Virus record (IMG/VR): IMGVR_UViG_3300042334_000377
Span: 2,934 to 66,933 of that record
Origin: a virus
Lineage: Duplodnaviria > Caudoviricetes
DNA: 64,000 nt
Strand: one strand, 5' to 3'
Within the stretch, counting starts at the first letter, position 1, and each line of letters starts with the position of its first letter. Below the pieces are notes generated by a model. The model was not told where the DNA came from, made no database searches, and saw only the letters and a program-made list of their open reading frames with translations. Positions 2,457-8,546 of the stretch are shown here, in pieces. A program made the translations under genes and the position numbers.

Positions 2457-3130
2457 ATTTCAAATATATTACCATTACTAGTTAATTTTCCAAATTTGCC
2501 ATCAGTTACTACTGATCCGTTACTAAACCATGTATCGTATGCGCTTAGTTTTAACATTCCTGCATTAATAATATCTTTGCAGTTATGTATGTGCCCAAAT
2601 AAATGGTACGCAGGTTGCATCTCTAATACTACATTTAATAAAGACTTATCGCCACAAGGTTCCATATTATTAAGACGATCAAAAGACTTGTCTAAAATGC
2701 CTTTAGGCGGCCCGTGTGTAACAATAATGTCACAAGGTTCGTGTATAGCATTGCGCCAGAATCGATCTAGTTTATTGCGATCTTTCATGAATGCCCATTG
2801 ACCAAACTGAGGCGTATGGGGTGACCCAAATATTTTAATGCCGTCAATATCTATATAGTCATTCTCTAAGTAATGTATGTTGTACCCAGAAAAATCTATT
2901 TTTTTAACTAAGCCTTTTTCAATAGAGGTATCATGATTACCTGCTACATAAATCTTATGCTCAATAGGTAATGATTTGTACCAATGAATAAATTCTTTAA
3001 CTTCAGGCTCATTGTTGTATGGATCTCTAGGATTACTACAATCGCCAGAATGTATTACCATATCAATATCCTTAGGTATAGTTAGTAAGTCGTGATACCC
3101 GTGAGTATCTGAAATGTGCCATATTTTCAT
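2453..3130 (-). CDS. Calcineurin-like metallophosphoesterase
   Basis: SDTHG, HSGD, GNHD, THGPP and GHIH motifs. Confidence 0.92.
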   Translation of the reverse strand: MKIWHISDTHGYHDLLTIPKDIDMVIHSGDCSNPRDPYNNEPEVKEFIHWYKSLPIEHKIYVAGNHDTSIEKGLVKKIDFSGYNIHYLENDYIDIDGIKIFGSPHTPQFGQWAFMKDRNKLDRFWRNAIHEPCDIIVTHGPPKGILDKSFDRLNNMEPCGDKSLLNVVLEMQPAYHLFGHIHNCKDIINAGMLKLSAYDTWFSNGSVVTDGKFGKLTSNGNIFEI

Positions 3131-3342
3131 AATTTATTATCTTGTTCTATTAATTGGAATATATAACTCCATACTTTTATTTCTCTTCTATGTGATGCAA
3201 TCATGTCGTCTACTGTATCAGAATTTATACCCCAATCAAGATATTTAGTCATATCCTCTCGTAATAAGCACTCTAATTTAGATCCAACTTTATTACTCGC
3301 TAAATCGTTTAAATAATCTTTATCAAAAACATCATTTTCCAT
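3127..3342 (-). CDS. Hypothetical protein
   Basis: ORF track, coupled to neighbours. Confidence 0.6.
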   Translation of the reverse strand: MENDVFDKDYLNDLASNKVGSKLECLLREDMTKYLDWGINSDTVDDMIASHRREIKVWSYIFQLIEQDNKL

Positions 3343-3343
3343 A

Positions 3344-3592
3344 TTATCCTAATTTATCAGGGTCTATATTATATTCAGTTAACAATTCGCTTATTTTATC
3401 AAACACTAAATAAACACCATCATGAGCATCCATCTCTTTGCCGTTTGCATGGTCACGATCAAGATCCCATTCACATTTTTTTCTTACGTTATGAGTTAAT
3501 TCCCATAATAAACCAGCCATGTCGGGTGCCATGTTGTGTATAGCAAACTCATAGCTATCGTCTGGTAACTTAAATTTAATTGTCGCTTTCAT
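3344..3592 (-). CDS. Hypothetical protein
   Basis: ORF track, coupled to neighbours. Confidence 0.65.
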   Translation of the reverse strand: MKATIKFKLPDDSYEFAIHNMAPDMAGLLWELTHNVRKKCEWDLDRDHANGKEMDAHDGVYLVFDKISELLTEYNIDPDKLG

Positions 3593-3593
3593 A

Positions 3594-4067
3594 TTAGTTA
3601 GGTCGTGTTCTTATTTCTTCATTACTATTTCGGATTTTTACTTTTTCAGCTTCGTAATAATTCCAGTAAGCAGCTACGCTATCGCCAGGAACTTTGTATT
3701 CATCAGGCATACATTGGGGCATTGGCGTAGAAGCTAAATTTATCATTTTCTTTGGTATATCGCCTAAACATTCTTCACATTTTGTTATAGTTAAATGTTT
3801 TTTACCATAACGTTTAGTATACTCTTCGCCAAGCGCTAGCATATGAAAGTACAACCACGCATAATTATCGGCAGACTCTCGTGCCCATATAGCTGACGGG
3901 TGATTTTTATGAGTTGCTTTATATGGTACATCTGCATTATCGCCATCTAGTACAATATGCGCAGTGCATAATAATTGCGCAGATTCTAAGATCATTTTTA
4001 CAACGTGCTTGTTATACATCATTGTAGCTGCTTTATCAGGGTCTTTGTCTAAATAGAATATATTCAT
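3594..4067 (-). CDS. Pyrimidine-dimer DNA glycosylase-like protein (DenV-related phage family)
   Basis: MNIFYLD...KHVVKMILESAQLL...THKNHPSAIW...PQCMPDEYK...AYWNYY signature. Confidence 0.75.
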   Translation of the reverse strand: MNIFYLDKDPDKAATMMYNKHVVKMILESAQLLCTAHIVLDGDNADVPYKATHKNHPSAIWARESADNYAWLYFHMLALGEEYTKRYGKKHLTITKCEECLGDIPKKMINLASTPMPQCMPDEYKVPGDSVAAYWNYYEAEKVKIRNSNEEIRTRPN

Positions 4068-4261
4068 AGTTTTTGTATTTCATGTTTAATATTATAGTGA
4101 TACTTAGATGCAGTGGCTTTTGTTAATTCATCAACAACTTTCATAGCACACATTTTACTTATAATCCAGCCATGTTTATCATACTCATCATTTAAAGTAT
4201 GCTCTAATCTATGGTAAAAATACCATACTAAATTTAATGCTTCTTCTTTAGGTTCCATAAT
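4064..4261 (-). CDS. Hypothetical protein, paralogous to 10025-10240 (likely start MEPKEEA)
   Basis: Shared pattern PKExAxxL...CA...DE...KxEIxxL. Confidence 0.6.
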   Translation of the reverse strand: MMEPKEEALNLVWYFYHRLEHTLNDEYDKHGWIISKMCAMKVVDELTKATASKYHYNIKHEIQKL

Positions 4262-4842
4262 TAAAAATTGTTTTTTACTGCGTTCCACACTATAGCTTGG
4301 TACTCGTAACCGTTTAAGCCTCGTTGTTTAGCTTTTTCGATTGTTAATAATCTTATTTGATCATAGGCTTTTCTGCTTGGATTAGTTTTTATAGTTTTAC
4401 CAAAGCAAGCGCGCAAATGCCAAACATCAACTGTAATATAATTGTTATCTAATTTTGCAATATTGTTAACAAAGCTAAATGTTTTTAAACTTTTATCAGT
4501 AATAGAGGTTTGCTCTTTACCTAATAAAAAGGCTTTTTCTTTGTTTCGGTTAAACGTACATACTTTAACTTGATCAGGCTCGAGGCCAGCGTGTATAGCA
4601 TCAAGTACCGTTTTGGTATCTTTAATATTTTGTGGCCAACGATTACGTGGTGACAATGCACTAATGATACTCGCAACGGTTTCTAGCTTAGTATTATACC
4701 GCTCAGCAAGATCTTTACATATATAATGCGCTTGCTTATACCATGCAATACCGTTATCAATATCTTTATCGGTTGCTAATGAGAAGTAATTATCTAAATT
4801 TTTATTTACTTCCGCTAATTGTTTAGTTGTTAATTCTTTCAT
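4261..4842 (-). CDS. Conserved phage protein, possibly HhH-GPD glycosylase-like
   Basis: WY...SALSPRNRW...KTFSF...ITVDVWHLRA...QAIVW. Confidence 0.55.
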   Translation of the reverse strand: MKELTTKQLAEVNKNLDNYFSLATDKDIDNGIAWYKQAHYICKDLAERYNTKLETVASIISALSPRNRWPQNIKDTKTVLDAIHAGLEPDQVKVCTFNRNKEKAFLLGKEQTSITDKSLKTFSFVNNIAKLDNNYITVDVWHLRACFGKTIKTNPSRKAYDQIRLLTIEKAKQRGLNGYEYQAIVWNAVKNNF

Positions 4843-4852
4843 ATTTGTTGTT

Positions 4853-4895
4853 TTACATATATATTATCATTCTTTAATCGTATCAAGACTGTAAG
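4853..4895 (-). promoter_or_regulatory. Early promoter-like motif, copy 2
   Basis: CTTACAGTCTTGATACGATTAAAGAATGATAATATATATGTAA. Confidence 0.8.
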
Positions 4896-5019
4896 CAATT
4901 AATTTCTTATTATGCTTGTGTAAGCGGTTGTCTCTGCAATAAGAACAACTACCATTGTTTCTGCAGGATCTATCAAACACTCTTGATTTCCTGTACGCTT
5001 GTTTTACTGTTCTGCTCAT
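4867..5019 (-). CDS. Small basic Cys/His protein (likely start MSRTVK)
   Basis: DRSCRNNGSCSYCRDNRLH; the longer ORF-track start overlaps a tRNA-like gene. Confidence 0.65.
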   Translation of the reverse strand: MSRTVKQAYRKSRVFDRSCRNNGSCSYCRDNRLHKHNKKLIAYSLDTIKE

Positions 5020-5033
5020 AATATTTAATTTAG

Positions 5034-5157
5034 TAGTCAGGACAGGATTCGAACCTGTAAGCTCCCGCACTTCTGCGTTGATCAATTTTTTGTTTAATGT
5101 GAGGATCGCTTAACCTCAGTACAGTTTTTTAGCGTCTACCAATTCCGCCACCTGACT
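5034..5157 (-). tRNA. Leu-type tRNA-like RNA with expanded, non-canonical anticodon region (124 nt)
   Basis: Acceptor AGTCAGG/CCTGACT+A, D arm TGGCGGAATTGGTAGACGC, T arm ACAGG-TTCGAAT-CCTGT; ~70-nt interior with no canonical anticodon arm. Confidence 0.7.
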
Positions 5158-5209
5158 TAGCTTCTATTGACTTTATCAGTGTCAACACTTTACACAGCTT
5201 AGCTATTAG

Positions 5210-5298
5210 GAACTAAAAGGGGAATCGAACCCCTTAACCCGTCGGTTGTGACAATGCCCGGAGACTGAAACAGATCCATTTAGCCCAGCACTTAGTTC
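5210..5298 (-). tRNA. Degenerate tRNA-like RNA (His-like G-1:C73 acceptor; TTGTCAC loop on a poor stem)
   Basis: GAACTAAG/TTTAGTTC acceptor, T arm AGGGG-TTCGATT-CCCCT. Confidence 0.55.
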
Positions 5299-5299
5299 T

Positions 5300-5668
5300 T
5301 TATTAATCCGGGGACCGGTTATTTTCTTTATCCCATATTTCGGTTGCAACCAGCTAGCTAAGCCCGGTATAACTTCACACAACCCCGAGTGATTAACATT
5401 TCGACCGGGGTCACCCCAATCCCATTCACATCCGCTCCCAGGTTAATGCCTGCCCGCTTTATTACCTCGTTAACTTAGGCGCGTTGTTCGTCTCGGATGA
5501 TTTCTTATTCAGCATTACGTACTGTTTCCCACGTTCCAACCTTGGTCTTGCAGGGTTACTGGTTTGTTGATCTTACTATTAACCCTTTTTCTATGTTATC
5601 AACCTAACAGCGAGCATTGGAATTTACACGGCCTCTATACCACTCATGTGAGACAACCGTGTATAGCA
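5300..5668 (-). ncRNA. Putative large structured ncRNA (~370 nt)
   Basis: GC-rich interval with no ORF-track call and at least six complementary helices, including crossing pairings. Confidence 0.65.
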
Positions 5669-5669
5669 A

Positions 5670-5906
5670 TTATACCGTAACAACTTTCTTAAATCTGTAG
5701 AAAGCTAAGATATATTTGTTTAAGAATTTACCTTTAGACGAGGCTTCTCTTAAACCATTCATTACGTGAGTTGGTACATTGAAGTACTCATACTCTCTAC
5801 CGTTTTTAAACAGTACAAATAGTCTTTCGACATTAGGATAGTAAGACACTTCAAAGATAGCGCTACTATCAACCGTTAGTGTTTCCACCAAGTTTACATT
5901 AGTCAT
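5670..5906 (-). CDS. KTSC domain protein
   Basis: VDSSAIFEVSY...LFVLFKNGREYEYFNVP...ASSKGKFLNKYI. Confidence 0.9.
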   Translation of the reverse strand: MTNVNLVETLTVDSSAIFEVSYYPNVERLFVLFKNGREYEYFNVPTHVMNGLREASSKGKFLNKYILAFYRFKKVVTV

Positions 5907-5928
5907 AGTTATTAAATTTAATTGTTAG

Positions 5929-5999
5929 TTGTCTTATAAGGATTCGAACCTAAACTGAATCAGTCAAAGTGATTAGTGCTACCGTTACACCATAAGACA
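5929..5999 (-). tRNA. tRNA-Gln(UUG)
   Basis: Cloverleaf: TGTCTTA/TAAGACA acceptor, AATCA-CTTTGAC-TGATT anticodon arm, TTCGAAT T loop; CCA not encoded. Confidence 0.9.
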
Positions 6000-6004
6000 C
6001 GTGG

Positions 6005-6259
6005 TTAATCTAGCAATACCATATAGGCGTCGCCATTGGCTCGTCTGAACCAATTCATCGCTTTATTAAAGGTTGCATCATACTTATTTAACATAACACA
6101 ACCCATAATATAATCATACATACTTAATTCAGCGGCTGTTAATTCAATACTTTCATGACTAAAAGGGTTCATTACCATTCCGCCATTAGTATATAACATA
6201 CCATTAAACCATTTAGGCAATGGCTGATCTTCTGTTTTATTCTTTCTAAGATCTATCAT
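6005..6259 (-). CDS. Conserved small phage protein
   Basis: NPFS...L...ELSMYDYIMG...WFRRAN..AYMVLLD. Confidence 0.7.
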   Translation of the reverse strand: MIDLRKNKTEDQPLPKWFNGMLYTNGGMVMNPFSHESIELTAAELSMYDYIMGCVMLNKYDATFNKAMNWFRRANGDAYMVLLD

Positions 6260-6666
6260 TATTCTTCAGTATTAGTTATTAATTTACCAAATGATTCTTG
6301 AAATTTATCTAATAATATATCAGATAATTCATCAGTTACAGCGTCAGAATTAAAGTCAATATTTTCTATTTCAATTGTATTGTGGTAGTTAATACTGAAC
6401 TCAGCGCTTGAATAATCATGTATGTCAACATCGCCTCGGTTTATTCTGTTTTCTAGTTCTCTGGTTACACTTTCGCTAAAGTTTTGAAAGTCCATTTCAG
6501 TAATTGGAGTAGCATTTGCATTAGACAAAGCCTCAGCGGTTTCAGTTAATACAGTAGTTCGCAATGAACTTAATAGATTAACAACATCGTCTTTAGAAAA
6601 GATACTTGGATAAGCATCTATAGTTTTTGTAATTTCCTGGTCAAACAGGTTGTTTATTTTATCCAT
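6259..6666 (-). CDS. Acidic hypothetical protein (possible DNA mimic / anti-defence)
   Basis: Strongly D/E-rich, first gene after promoter copy 3. Confidence 0.6.
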   Translation of the reverse strand: MDKINNLFDQEITKTIDAYPSIFSKDDVVNLLSSLRTTVLTETAEALSNANATPITEMDFQNFSESVTRELENRINRGDVDIHDYSSAEFSINYHNTIEIENIDFNSDAVTDELSDILLDKFQESFGKLITNTEE

Positions 6667-6684
6667 TTTATTAAATTTTATTGG

Positions 6685-6727
6685 TTACATTTATATTATC
6701 AATTATTGTTCGTATTCGGACTGTAAG
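6685..6727 (-). promoter_or_regulatory. Early promoter-like motif, copy 3
   Basis: CTTACAGTCCGAATACGAACAATAATTGATAATATAAATGTAA. Confidence 0.8.
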
Positions 6728-6924
6728 ATTCCATTTTCTTCAACAACTTCGCAGAATAAGGTGTATAGTAAACTTTCTATTTGCTGCAATCTATGTAATT
6801 GATGTACGGTTAAAAGCGATCTTTCTATTCTAAAATCCGTATTTAGGTTTTCTTCAATTGTTAATGTTCCTTCAAAGACTGCTAGCTTAATTAAATCTAG
6901 TTCTTTATCGCTTAGTACTTTCAT
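6703..6924 (-). CDS. Hypothetical protein
   Basis: ORF track. Confidence 0.6.
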   Translation of the reverse strand: MKVLSDKELDLIKLAVFEGTLTIEENLNTDFRIERSLLTVHQLHRLQQIESLLYTLFCEVVEENGILQSEYEQ

Positions 6925-7074
6925 ATATTTTTATTTCTAATGCATTGTTAAACACTCGATCGTATGCTTCTGCCATTTTATTATTATCGGCATAGTGTAC
7001 AGTCCTTACTATTTCTCGCATCCACACTTCGAATGCTAATGCTTCTTGATGAGCTAATCTTTCTTTTGTCATAA

Positions 7075-7317
7075 TTAATCTGTTAAAACTATTCTTAATG
7101 ATCCATCTTCGTTTTCGCCAGTAAAATTACCAGTTGATTCATTGTATACTAATACTATATCAAAAGCTTTAGCTACTTTAACGGCTGCAATGCCAATCTC
7201 GCCTTGTAATGTTAATTCGCCGCGTCTAGGATAATACTGTATACTATAGAATACTTCAAACTCTACTTGCTCATTTACATATCTTAATTTTTCTAATAAC
7301 CACATTCTTCTATCCAT
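7075..7317 (-). CDS. Hypothetical protein
   Basis: ORF track; follows promoter copy 4. Confidence 0.65.
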   Translation of the reverse strand: MDRRMWLLEKLRYVNEQVEFEVFYSIQYYPRRGELTLQGEIGIAAVKVAKAFDIVLVYNESTGNFTGENEDGSLRIVLTD

Positions 7318-7337
7318 CTTGTTATATTTTTTATTTG

Positions 7338-7380
7338 TTACATATATATTATCATTTGTTAATCGTATTTTGATTGTAAG
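7338..7380 (-). promoter_or_regulatory. Early promoter-like motif, copy 4
   Basis: CTTACAATCAAAATACGATTAACAAATGATAATATATATGTAA. Confidence 0.8.
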
Positions 7381-7599
7381 CTACTCAACTACTTTAATAA
7401 AGTTACCATCTTTTCCAAACAATAAAGTTAATTCAAACTTATGGTCTAGATATTCTATAATCTCTGATGGGTTGGCAAATTGCATGGCAATAGAGAATTG
7501 ATCAGGTGGTAGGTCTAAACCTTGCTCACGAGCATAAGTGTATAGCAAACTCATATCAAGTTGATTACTATTACGCATTTTAATATACTCTGCTTTCAT
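7381..7599 (-). CDS. Hypothetical protein
   Basis: ORF track, coupled operon. Confidence 0.65.
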   Translation of the reverse strand: MKAEYIKMRNSNQLDMSLLYTYAREQGLDLPPDQFSIAMQFANPSEIIEYLDHKFELTLLFGKDGNFIKVVE

Positions 7600-7790
7600 T
7601 ATTTTTGTTTTAAGGTTAATGCTTTAATCTTTTCGATTGTTTCAGATACAACCATGTCTACATAATCCGCAGTCATCAAAGCATTTTTACCTTGTGCTTC
7701 AACTTCTTTAATATCTTTCTTCCATTCATTTCGAATTGCATTCAATCCTTCGATTACTAAATAACTTTCAAATCCGTTTAATTTTTTCAT
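7599..7790 (-). CDS. Hypothetical protein
   Basis: ORF track, coupled operon. Confidence 0.65.
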   Translation of the reverse strand: MKKLNGFESYLVIEGLNAIRNEWKKDIKEVEAQGKNALMTADYVDMVVSETIEKIKALTLKQK

Positions 7791-7791
7791 A

Positions 7792-8040
7792 CTAATATTT
7801 ATCTTTAATTTCTGTTAATGTTAAGTGATAATGATTCCAATAACCGCTTCTACTGTGAGCTTTCGCTTTTGCACCAAAGGATGATTTCATTTTAGTCTTG
7901 ATTTGTTTATAGTCATTACTATTAAAACTCTTACAAAAGCCATCAATATTCACCGCATTTATACGGTTCGCTTTATTACGTGCTTTCTTTTCTTCAAGAT
8001 ATTGACACGCTTCTTTCATATTATTTGCTATTGTTATCAT
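7792..8040 (-). CDS. Hypothetical protein
   Basis: ORF track, coupled operon. Confidence 0.65.
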   Translation of the reverse strand: MITIANNMKEACQYLEEKKARNKANRINAVNIDGFCKSFNSNDYKQIKTKMKSSFGAKAKAHSRSGYWNHYHLTLTEIKDKY

Positions 8041-8041
8041 A

Positions 8042-8224
8042 TTATTTTATTAAAGTTAAACCTAATTCATTTGCCACATAATTCACATGCTTCGTAGTTG
8101 TTCTTGACCACCAACCCAATACTTTAAGGGTATCGCCATCTCTCCTTGCAACGATTGTAGAGTAACTCCATACGTCATTACCAACCATTCTTAAATTGTC
8201 TTTGTATCTATTGAACTTTCTCAT
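8042..8224 (-). CDS. Conserved small phage protein
   Basis: WSYSTIVA...WSRTTTKHVNY pattern. Confidence 0.7.
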   Translation of the reverse strand: MRKFNRYKDNLRMVGNDVWSYSTIVARRDGDTLKVLGWWSRTTTKHVNYVANELGLTLIK

Positions 8225-8225
8225 A

Positions 8226-8408
8226 TTACTTTTTGATTATGTAAGTTAAACCTTTAAAATTAAACCACTCGCTTGTGCCGTCGGATTCTTTATTAGCATC
8301 GTAGATAAAACCAAAACTTGGTGGTAGATCGCCGATTGAATAAGGTGTGTATAGCAAACCGTTTAATAAGATTTGATTGTACTTTAAGAATTTAATTGAA
8401 TTTGTCAT
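8226..8408 (-). CDS. Hypothetical protein
   Basis: ORF track; follows promoter copy 5. Confidence 0.65.
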   Translation of the reverse strand: MTNSIKFLKYNQILLNGLLYTPYSIGDLPPSFGFIYDANKESDGTSEWFNFKGLTYIIKK

Positions 8409-8424
8409 AGTTAATTTGTTTTAG

Positions 8425-8467
8425 TTACATTTATATTATCAATTTTGAATCGTATTTATATTGTAAA
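8425..8467 (-). promoter_or_regulatory. Early promoter-like motif, copy 5
   Basis: TTTACAATATAAATACGATTCAAAATTGATAATATAAATGTAA. Confidence 0.8.
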
Positions 8468-8474
8468 TACTTTG

Positions 8475-8546
8475 TAGTTAGGGTAGGAATCGAACCTACA
8501 TTGCGGGCGCCTGATCGGCCTGAGTTTACCATTACTCCTCCTAACT
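8475..8546 (-). tRNA. tRNA-like RNA with intact acceptor/D/T arms but irregular anticodon arm
   Basis: AGTTAGG/CCTAACT+A, GAGT-AATGGTAA-ACTC, GTAGG-TTCGATT-CCTAC; interior GGCCGATCAGGCGCCCGCAA. Confidence 0.7.

Follow-up and report, generated by a model that had tools for sequence, protein, structure and literature searches.

RNase P RNA is a universal ribozyme, and its S-domain is regarded as a conserved reader of the tRNA elbow. Small RNAs of phage tRNA clusters include rnaC and rnaD (species 1 and 2) of phage T4, which are stable RNAs released by tRNA-type processing and are of unknown function; GOLLD and ROOL, also of unknown function, are far larger single RNAs borne by phages near tRNA genes. 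According to PMC3664808, the S-domain of RNase P docks the tRNA elbow via a double T-loop module of AG..A and UG..A pentads, and modules of this kind are small elbow-docking RNAs with one class outside RNase P. Phage ncRNA arrays that depend on a reverse transcriptase, and in which units of one ~150-nt type are repeated, gained and lost, are described in a report on the UG27 system (bioRxiv 10.64898/2026.09.22.753630). A 2023 catalogue lists 10,006 candidate viral structured RNAs (PMC10690425), among which the module described below may be listed under a serial name. Phrase searches of the literature returned no paper on phage-encoded or viral RNase P RNA, and wider searches, at the level of listings and abstracts, gave no relevant work.

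The stretch of DNA analysed here (the window, 64,000 nt) comprises bases 2934-66933 of a 66,933-nt IMG/VR virus record with a CheckV completeness of 100%. Its minus strand carries, at 5300-5668, a non-coding region that includes an 89-nt RNA termed module X (Table 1). By comparison of sequences, X is an RNA module of wide distribution among phages, so far uncatalogued and linked to RNase P. In seven RNase P-like RNAs, attached to a recognisable catalytic domain with CR-I, a P15 region and, in most, CR-V, X fills the slot of the S-domain (J11/12-J12/13) between the P7 strands; it differs from that domain in having a pseudoknot instead of P8, P9, P13 and P14, and in that most copies are free-standing, with no catalytic domain detected in the genomes checked. 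Compared by sequence only with the double T-loop modules of PMC3664808, X shares the UG..A pentad, whereas the AG..A pentad is not consistently present and X is mostly not located in an mRNA leader. Like rnaC and rnaD, X is a small RNA of tRNA clusters, but the T4-related phages mogra and PM2 carry it at other cluster positions than those two genes; X as a relative of rnaC or rnaD was rejected by a search of T4 68500-74500 with the X covariance model (R1, filters off), in which the best match scored 8.1 bits (E 1.8). The initial annotation had likened the region to GOLLD and ROOL: the analogy of setting holds, but neither model matches the window, and both RNAs are of another size class. Modules of the window are all unlike one another, in contrast to the repeated units described for UG27, and no match to a reverse transcriptase (RVT_1, PF00078) was found in the whole genome.

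Locus and module mosaic

The genome is AT-rich, and every gene around 3000-8500 is on the minus strand. GC content reaches 0.45-0.49 over 5200-5600 against ~0.28-0.37 in the flanks, and only three ORFs of at least 30 aa (58, 36 and 38 aa) overlap 5300-5668, so that the GC-rich, ORF-poor stretch of the initial annotation is real. Its placement in a phage tRNA region, adjoining a tRNA-like element, is likewise supported, and the upstream ORF is a KTSC gene as proposed. ARAGORN called two tRNAs in the window, both outside 5300-5668, and no tmRNA. The covariance-model search suggested with that annotation was run, and the region proved to be without a known RNA family: no Rfam 15 family matched 5300-5668 at gathering score, none at E ≤ 10 in a search of 4850-6050, and none covering it at E ≤ 0.5 in a search of the whole window, the match near it being a 17-nt T arm only (5218-5234). 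A scan for promoters and terminators gave nothing above shuffle expectation. RNA-library evidence consisted of contigs from four runs containing parts of the stretch; these libraries may contain DNA, and the contigs give sequence variants rather than transcript ends, strand or level.

Table 1. Features of the locus and of module X (window coordinates).
Feature	Position	Strand	Description
tRNA-Gln	5929..5999	-	upstream of the KTSC gene; Rfam and ARAGORN
KTSC-domain gene	5670..5906	-	upstream of the array; Pfam PF13619, 58.6 bits
Module A	5625..5668	-	hairpin directly after the KTSC stop codon; contains pair 1
Module X	5534..5622	-	89-nt pseudoknotted RNA; covariance model R1 94.3 bits, E ~1e-20
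X P1 5' strand	5617..5622	-	pairs with 5534-5539
X P1a 5' strand	5608..5610	-	CUG; 3-bp helix with CAG at 5559-5561
X P2 5' strand	5598..5603	-	pairs with 5566-5571
X pseudoknot 5' strand	5580..5585	-	GGGUUA in the P2 loop; pairs with UAACCC at 5553-5558
Module B	5503..5533	-	small hairpin with conserved GGAAACAG loop and 3' tail
Module C	5432..5502	-	~70-nt domain closed by its own stem
Module D	5401..5431	-	stable 8-bp hairpin with 3-nt loop
Module F	5302..5400	-	multi-helix domain of ~100 nt; in most relatives
tRNA-like domain	5209..5300	-	acceptor-like stem and T arm; just outside the flagged stretch; the 'tRNA mimic' of the initial annotation
tRNA gene with 68-nt insert	5034..5157	-	downstream of the array; Rfam tRNA model 35.3 bits, at the E-value threshold

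Related loci were collected by a search with the KTSC protein, which yielded 12 loci, 10 of them at 82-96% identity (L-numbers are locus labels of this analysis). Downstream of the KTSC gene these relatives align with the window in blocks only, with modules present, absent or reordered; contigs from RNA libraries include relatives that skip 5422-5506 or 5400-5504 and one with an extra hairpin inserted at 5549/5550; and several module closing stems covary among the relatives. The region is therefore described as an array of autonomous modules. A single RNA class of ~370 nt, as first proposed, is not supported, the region being a mosaic of at least six self-closed modules that varies among relatives whose KTSC proteins are 82-96% identical.

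Module A is identical to the window at 43 of 44 nt in L109 and at 25 nt in L105; L113 has ACACAA/UUGUGU where the window has ACACGG/CCGUGU, a compensatory change, and the fold z-score is -1.67. Among relatives of the KTSC locus, module X occupies this site in the window only. Module B recurs in L105 and L109, in the latter placed after module C, and its stem covaries across the three sequences. Among the relatives, module C is present in L109 and L111 only, where the closing stem reads CAUUUG/CAAAUG (CAUCCG/CGGAUG in the window), and is skipped in one RNA-library contig (run X1). Module D (-11.8 kcal/mol, z -1.81) was also found in L105, L111, L050 and Flavobacterium phage immuto, lying between two tRNA genes in the last. 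For module F, RNAalifold (n=7) predicted 23 pairs, 6 of them changed on both sides, and the module is missing from L113. Folding z-scores of single modules are not decisive.

All six complementary pairs proposed initially (numbered 1 to 6) exist on the minus strand, each made up of 6-8 base pairs if G-U is counted, and the comparative data support structured non-coding RNA on that strand. Pair 1 (5657-5663/5625-5631) is a local hairpin kept in relatives with compensatory change; pair 2 (5617-5622/5534-5539) is the closing stem P1 of X and pair 4 (5580-5586/5552-5558) its pseudoknot, both with comparative support. Pairs 3, 5 and 6 bridge separate modules, and because these modules occur without each other or reordered in close relatives, neither the three pairs nor the pseudoknot proposed from the crossing of pairs 2 and 3 is supported; the true pseudoknot is pair 4, within X. 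Helices P2 and P1a of X were absent from the original pair list. The fold of the whole of 5200-5680 (minus strand) gave z +0.41, with 65 of 100 shuffles folding at least as well, and since the region folds no better than shuffles, the single-RNA picture has no more than chance behind it. The structural signal is comparative and resides in the separate modules.

The tRNA-like element at the 3' end of the array is kept in 9 of the 10 close relatives, being only 61 nt long and devoid of an anticodon arm in L109 and L111. It received no ARAGORN call and, apart from the T arm, no Rfam tRNA or tmRNA call; its fold z-score is -1.88. An acceptor-like stem of 7-8 bp, the T arm and a CUGG...CCGACGGG stretch recalling the tRNA-like domain of tmRNA were seen in the window and in L105-L114. 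Release of a 3' end at this downstream element, as the initial annotation had envisaged, is a plausible candidate processing route. The tRNA gene beyond it, which ARAGORN did not call, has a Leu-type D arm, and its insert stands where the anticodon and variable region should be; RNA-library contigs carry many different inserts between the conserved ends, and odd tRNAs resembling it come after X in L003, L036, L082 and others. A further non-coding block with several shared motifs, ~250-300 nt long and beginning near ...TAAACATTGA..., is conserved downstream of X or of the tRNA-like element in Flavobacterium-type phage contigs (L010, L047, L105, L111); an Rfam search at E ≤ 5 gave no match for the copy in L047.

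Known classes were considered for the region. A divergent tmRNA was prompted by the tRNA-like 3' element, by the series of small pseudoknots and by what could be a tag frame in module C. It was rejected on three grounds: neither ARAGORN nor the Rfam tmRNA models gave a match, the window shares no conserved reading frame with L109 and L111, and the 3' element contains both strands of the acceptor stem. For lack of Rfam support, the region was also rejected as a group I intron, as a known riboswitch and as a known small ribozyme.

Structure and distribution of module X

From 5' to 3', X consists of P1, a junction, P1a, an internal loop, the P2 hairpin with a conserved loop, the 3' strand of the pseudoknot, a conserved tail of GAAAGAC type (CAAGAC in the window) and the 3' strand of P1; an optional hairpin is possible between the pseudoknot and the tail. 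The alignment on which this layout is based comprised 38 of 39 anchored copies (the window and 37 others); L077 was excluded on account of a spurious 3' anchor. The closing stem P1, of 6-14 bp, forms in a fixed register from largely unrelated sequences in 35 of the 38 copies and in a shifted register in the remaining three (L051, L063, L075). In P1a, three of the four variants whose 3' strand is GAG carry CUC as the 5' strand, and the same change is found in Escherichia phage mogra; in P2, both sides are changed in five of five variable pairs. The pseudoknot forms between a GGGUUN consensus of the P2 loop and NAACCC further downstream; at the sixth pair, 23 copies have UA, 10 have AU, 4 have CG and 1 has another combination, with further compensations to AGGUUN/NAACCU (L121, L137) and GGGAUU/AAUCCC (L149). 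Compensatory changes are present in all four helices of X. Pairing was kept in 93.1% of the cells of P2 and the pseudoknot against 78.5% in shuffles (0 of 500 reached the observed value), and dropped to 57-61% when the partners were slid by one column. The thermodynamic fold of X alone is unremarkable (z -0.49).

Two pentads of T-loop form, UGUUA and UANUA, are found in X; the former is invariant in 38 of 38 copies, although it is part of the search pattern, and the latter is nearly invariant. An AG..A pentad is present in the 5' junction of some subtypes only.

Two phages, Pectobacterium phage PM2 (T4-like) and Flavobacterium phage immuto, gave blastn matches to part of X, in each case at an unannotated site with a CDS on one side and a tRNA gene on the other. 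When IMG/VR was scanned with a pattern, 102 stretches were obtained; among 105 matches (these loci together with the window, PM2 and immuto), 61 had the 3' half too, and 42 of those were distinct true copies. R1 gave 59 matches in 71 sources, with one copy per locus, and the copy in the window is the sole one in the 66,933-nt genome. Many invariant columns of the first alignment were fixed by the search patterns themselves, and for this reason a second, less constrained scan was anchored on the loop motif only and scored with R1; it gave 76 new loci, and R1 found 30 matches in 81 sources, including 25 new, more divergent copies. In total, ~65 distinct copies were obtained from IMG/VR phage contigs. 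With the enterobacterial variant as the blastn query, X was also found in 53 records of cultured phages, namely Klebsiella (including RaK2 and K64-1), Proteus, Pectobacterium, Erwinia, Escherichia, Rhizobium and Pseudomonas phages, and the site is unannotated in nearly all of them. No match was found in 5,426 complete E. coli genomes, the sole cellular set scanned, and copies of X at eight other loci had no Rfam 15 match at E ≤ 5.

The genomic setting was surveyed with ARAGORN at 45 loci. A tRNA lies within 2 kb of X at 25 of them, always on the strand of X; at 13 it is ≤150 nt downstream and at 7 ≤150 nt upstream, the spacing typically being 18-23 nt. No tRNA was called within 2 kb at the other 20 loci, some of which are on short contigs, and odd tRNAs are missed by the program. 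In phage mogra (host K-12 MG1655), X occupies the 101-nt gap between tRNA-Met and tRNA-Arg. ORFs upstream of 72 distinct copies of X were sought and 50 were found, of which only that of the window is KTSC-like. Conversely, the 12 KTSC-linked loci, which include the 10 close relatives, gave no R1 match within their 2.5-kb flanks; L110 is on the same contig as L028, and the L110 relative therefore does carry X, outside the 2.5-kb flank. The KTSC protein travels with the locus and not with X, and the RNP of KTSC protein and RNA suggested initially is not supported for X. A small lipoprotein-like ORF (N-terminal signal and Cys) was observed just upstream of X in L002, L053, L082 and L207, which are Flavobacterium-type phages, and is annotated 'YcfL' in phage immuto.

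Several variants of X were recorded. An apparently circularly permuted copy is located at L130 10753-10871 (minus strand; R1 32 bits), with the 3' half first (loop motif, pseudoknot strand, tail), followed by P1 with a short loop and then the GCUGUUAGG half. A subtype in L023, L030, L078 and L077 is distinguished by a conserved 5' junction of greater length and by additional P2 helices; it lies ~30 nt upstream of a small ORF and after a U/A-rich tract in the first three, and in L077 the first ORF is ~300 nt downstream. This subtype may be a cis-acting variant. A divergent subgroup (L222, L175/L224, L180, L230) is marked by CUG for CAG in P1a and by a conserved 3' tail of another sequence, ...AUACCCAUUAAGAUCG...; in L222, X directly follows a tRNA 3' end.

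X within RNase P-like RNAs

Seven phage contigs (L051, L063, L075, L104, L121, L137, L149) carry X embedded in an RNase P-like RNA of ~275 nt, flanked by CR-I-like sequence and, in most, by CR-V-like sequence. Rfam RNase P models align over their full length to four of the seven at 28.7-54 bits (E 1e-8 to 1e-18): L075 matched RF00373 (54 bits), and L051, L063 and L137 matched RF00010 (41.9, 53.3 and 32.3 bits, respectively), all below the gathering scores of 100 and 84 (RF00010, RF00373). The RNAs of L121 and L149, which lie on phage contigs bearing terminal repeats (321 and 362 kb), had no significant Rfam match and are similar by eye and in alignment A3 only; that of L104 is cut by the contig end. 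In the Rfam alignments, CR-I (GAGGAAAGUC-type), P5, the GGAGCAAG/P15 region and CR-V (ACAGAACCCNGCUUA-type) are placed correctly. The S-domain positions are left unaligned, and the insert found there, between the P7 strands, is X closed by P1. With filters off, R1 gave 0 matches at E ≤ 10 in E. coli rnpB, the only canonical RNA compared. X is read as a non-canonical S-domain replacement in phage RNase P-like RNAs because it fills the S-domain insert and is unlike the E. coli S-domain. Embedded copies number only 7 distinct ones, and free-standing copies, of about 90-150 nt, are far more numerous.

An RNase P catalytic domain was sought in the whole genome of the window and in the PM2 and immuto genomes with RF00010, RF00373 and RF02357 and with a model of the 3' half of the phage catalytic domain (R2). 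None was found in any of the three genomes by either approach, absences that are not absolute because the search prefilter missed the RNA of L051. The best R2 match in the genome of the window (18.9 bits, E 0.08) is far from X; on E. coli rnpB, R2 was positioned correctly but scored weakly (16.2 bits, E 0.27). A split RNase P with its catalytic domain elsewhere in the genome was rejected, as the three Rfam models and R2 detected none, and the window locus as a complete RNase P RNA was rejected in that no CR-I/CR-V P4 catalytic domain was detected.

One of the seven contigs was observed to carry a GOLLD RNA as well (L051 2630-3102, plus strand; 190 bits, above the gathering score), so that a 12-kb stretch of it holds the GOLLD RNA, 29 tRNA genes and the X-bearing RNase P-like RNA.

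Interpretation and alternative explanations

We lean, by somewhat better than even expectation, towards a combined reading in which the region is a module array, the X family serves as a stand-in for the S-domain, and free-standing X is an excised tRNA-docking RNA. On this reading, 5300-5668 (minus strand) would be part of a co-oriented array of small, separately folding modules running from the KTSC gene to the tRNA-like element. Modules A, B, C, D and F would be lineage-specific structured RNAs, independently gained and lost, and X would be the widely conserved member, belonging to a large phage-specific family defined by P1, P1a, P2 and a pseudoknot from loop to 3' strand, which some phages appear to build into an RNase P-like RNA at the S-domain position. 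Free-standing X would be released from a polycistronic transcript of the tRNA region by processing of neighbouring tRNAs or tRNA-like elements and would then act, in trans or in cis, as a tRNA-docking RNA in the maturation or use of phage tRNAs, with its UGUUA and UANUA pentads as candidate T-loops. The structural and family part of this reading, which covers how X folds, how widely it is distributed among phages, where it lies in tRNA arrays and the fact that it fills the S-domain slot of RNase P-like RNAs, is shown by the data and is much firmer than the functional part; tRNA binding by X is suggested by its position in the RNase P-like RNAs. A more specific proposal, less likely than not, is that X represents a new class of free-standing, trans-acting tRNA-docking RNA, a portable 'specificity domain' that may be fused to a minimal RNase P catalytic domain or expressed alone from tRNA arrays. 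Its role would be either to redirect the RNase P of the host or to act on tRNAs, by capturing them, chaperoning them or shielding them, for instance from host nucleases that target tRNA.

Other explanations were weighed against the same data. That the region is one pseudoknotted ncRNA of ~370 nt, of a new class and acting as an RNP with the KTSC protein, would agree with the existence of the six complementary pairs and with the KTSC gene directly upstream, a position kept in the 10 close relatives; this is nevertheless very improbable, as it is contradicted by the presence, absence and reordering of modules among those relatives, by long-range pairs 3, 5 and 6, which link modules occurring separately, by the positive z-score of the whole-region fold, and by KTSC adjoining X in the window only (1 of 50 upstream ORFs). 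Free-standing copies might instead be decaying leftovers of phage RNase P RNA genes with no function of their own, a view to which the occurrence of X inside RNase P-like RNAs and the lack of a catalytic domain match in the genome of the window lend themselves. However, such copies far outnumber the seven embedded ones, maintain their own closing stem by compensatory changes, have a highly conserved core and are spread over unrelated phage groups with Flavobacterium, Enterobacterales, Pseudomonas and Rhizobium hosts, and decay is accordingly judged quite improbable. Among the alternatives, a cis-acting role of X, as a riboswitch-like or T-box-like sensor or as a processing or stability signal of its own transcript, is given the most weight while still being unlikely. 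Conserved junctions and a pseudoknot are typical of ligand-binding RNAs, and the subtype with an extended 5' part in L023, L030 and L078 (more loosely, L077) lies 30-300 nt upstream of an ORF and after a U/A-rich tract; yet many copies have tRNA genes on both sides at ~20 nt and no ORF to regulate, the downstream genes are unrelated, and the embedded position in RNase P-like RNAs points to docking or a structural role instead.

The compactness of X, its pseudoknot, its many invariant junction nucleotides and its location between tRNAs would also suit a small self-cleaving ribozyme that cuts tRNA-array transcripts, but X matches no Rfam ribozyme family, and its place in the S-domain slot would mean cutting the RNase P-like RNAs themselves; we assign very little probability to this. 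Least credible, to the point of being nearly negligible, is that the array is a set of reverse-transcriptase templates: the phage ncRNA arrays with gained and lost units in the UG27 report (bioRxiv 10.64898/2026.09.22.753630) are a precedent for such an organisation, but the UG27-type reading is contradicted by the lack of any RVT_1 match in the whole genome, and the units here all differ rather than repeating one ~150-nt type.

Should the proposal of a portable 'specificity domain' be true, the X-bearing RNAs would also be RNase P ribozymes encoded by phages, the first to be described, and their S-domain would be non-canonical. Exchange of the S-domain for an unrelated 90-nt pseudoknot, together with the stand-alone spread of the latter, would show modular evolution of a ribozyme domain, and phage tRNA biology would gain a further small RNA. 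X lies unannotated in well-known cultured phages and could therefore be tested directly; a phage growing on E. coli K-12 MG1655, T4-like and T5-like phages, and Klebsiella jumbo phages (RaK2/K64-1 group) are among them. For annotators, the X model would address a recurrent 'empty' gap in phage tRNA clusters.
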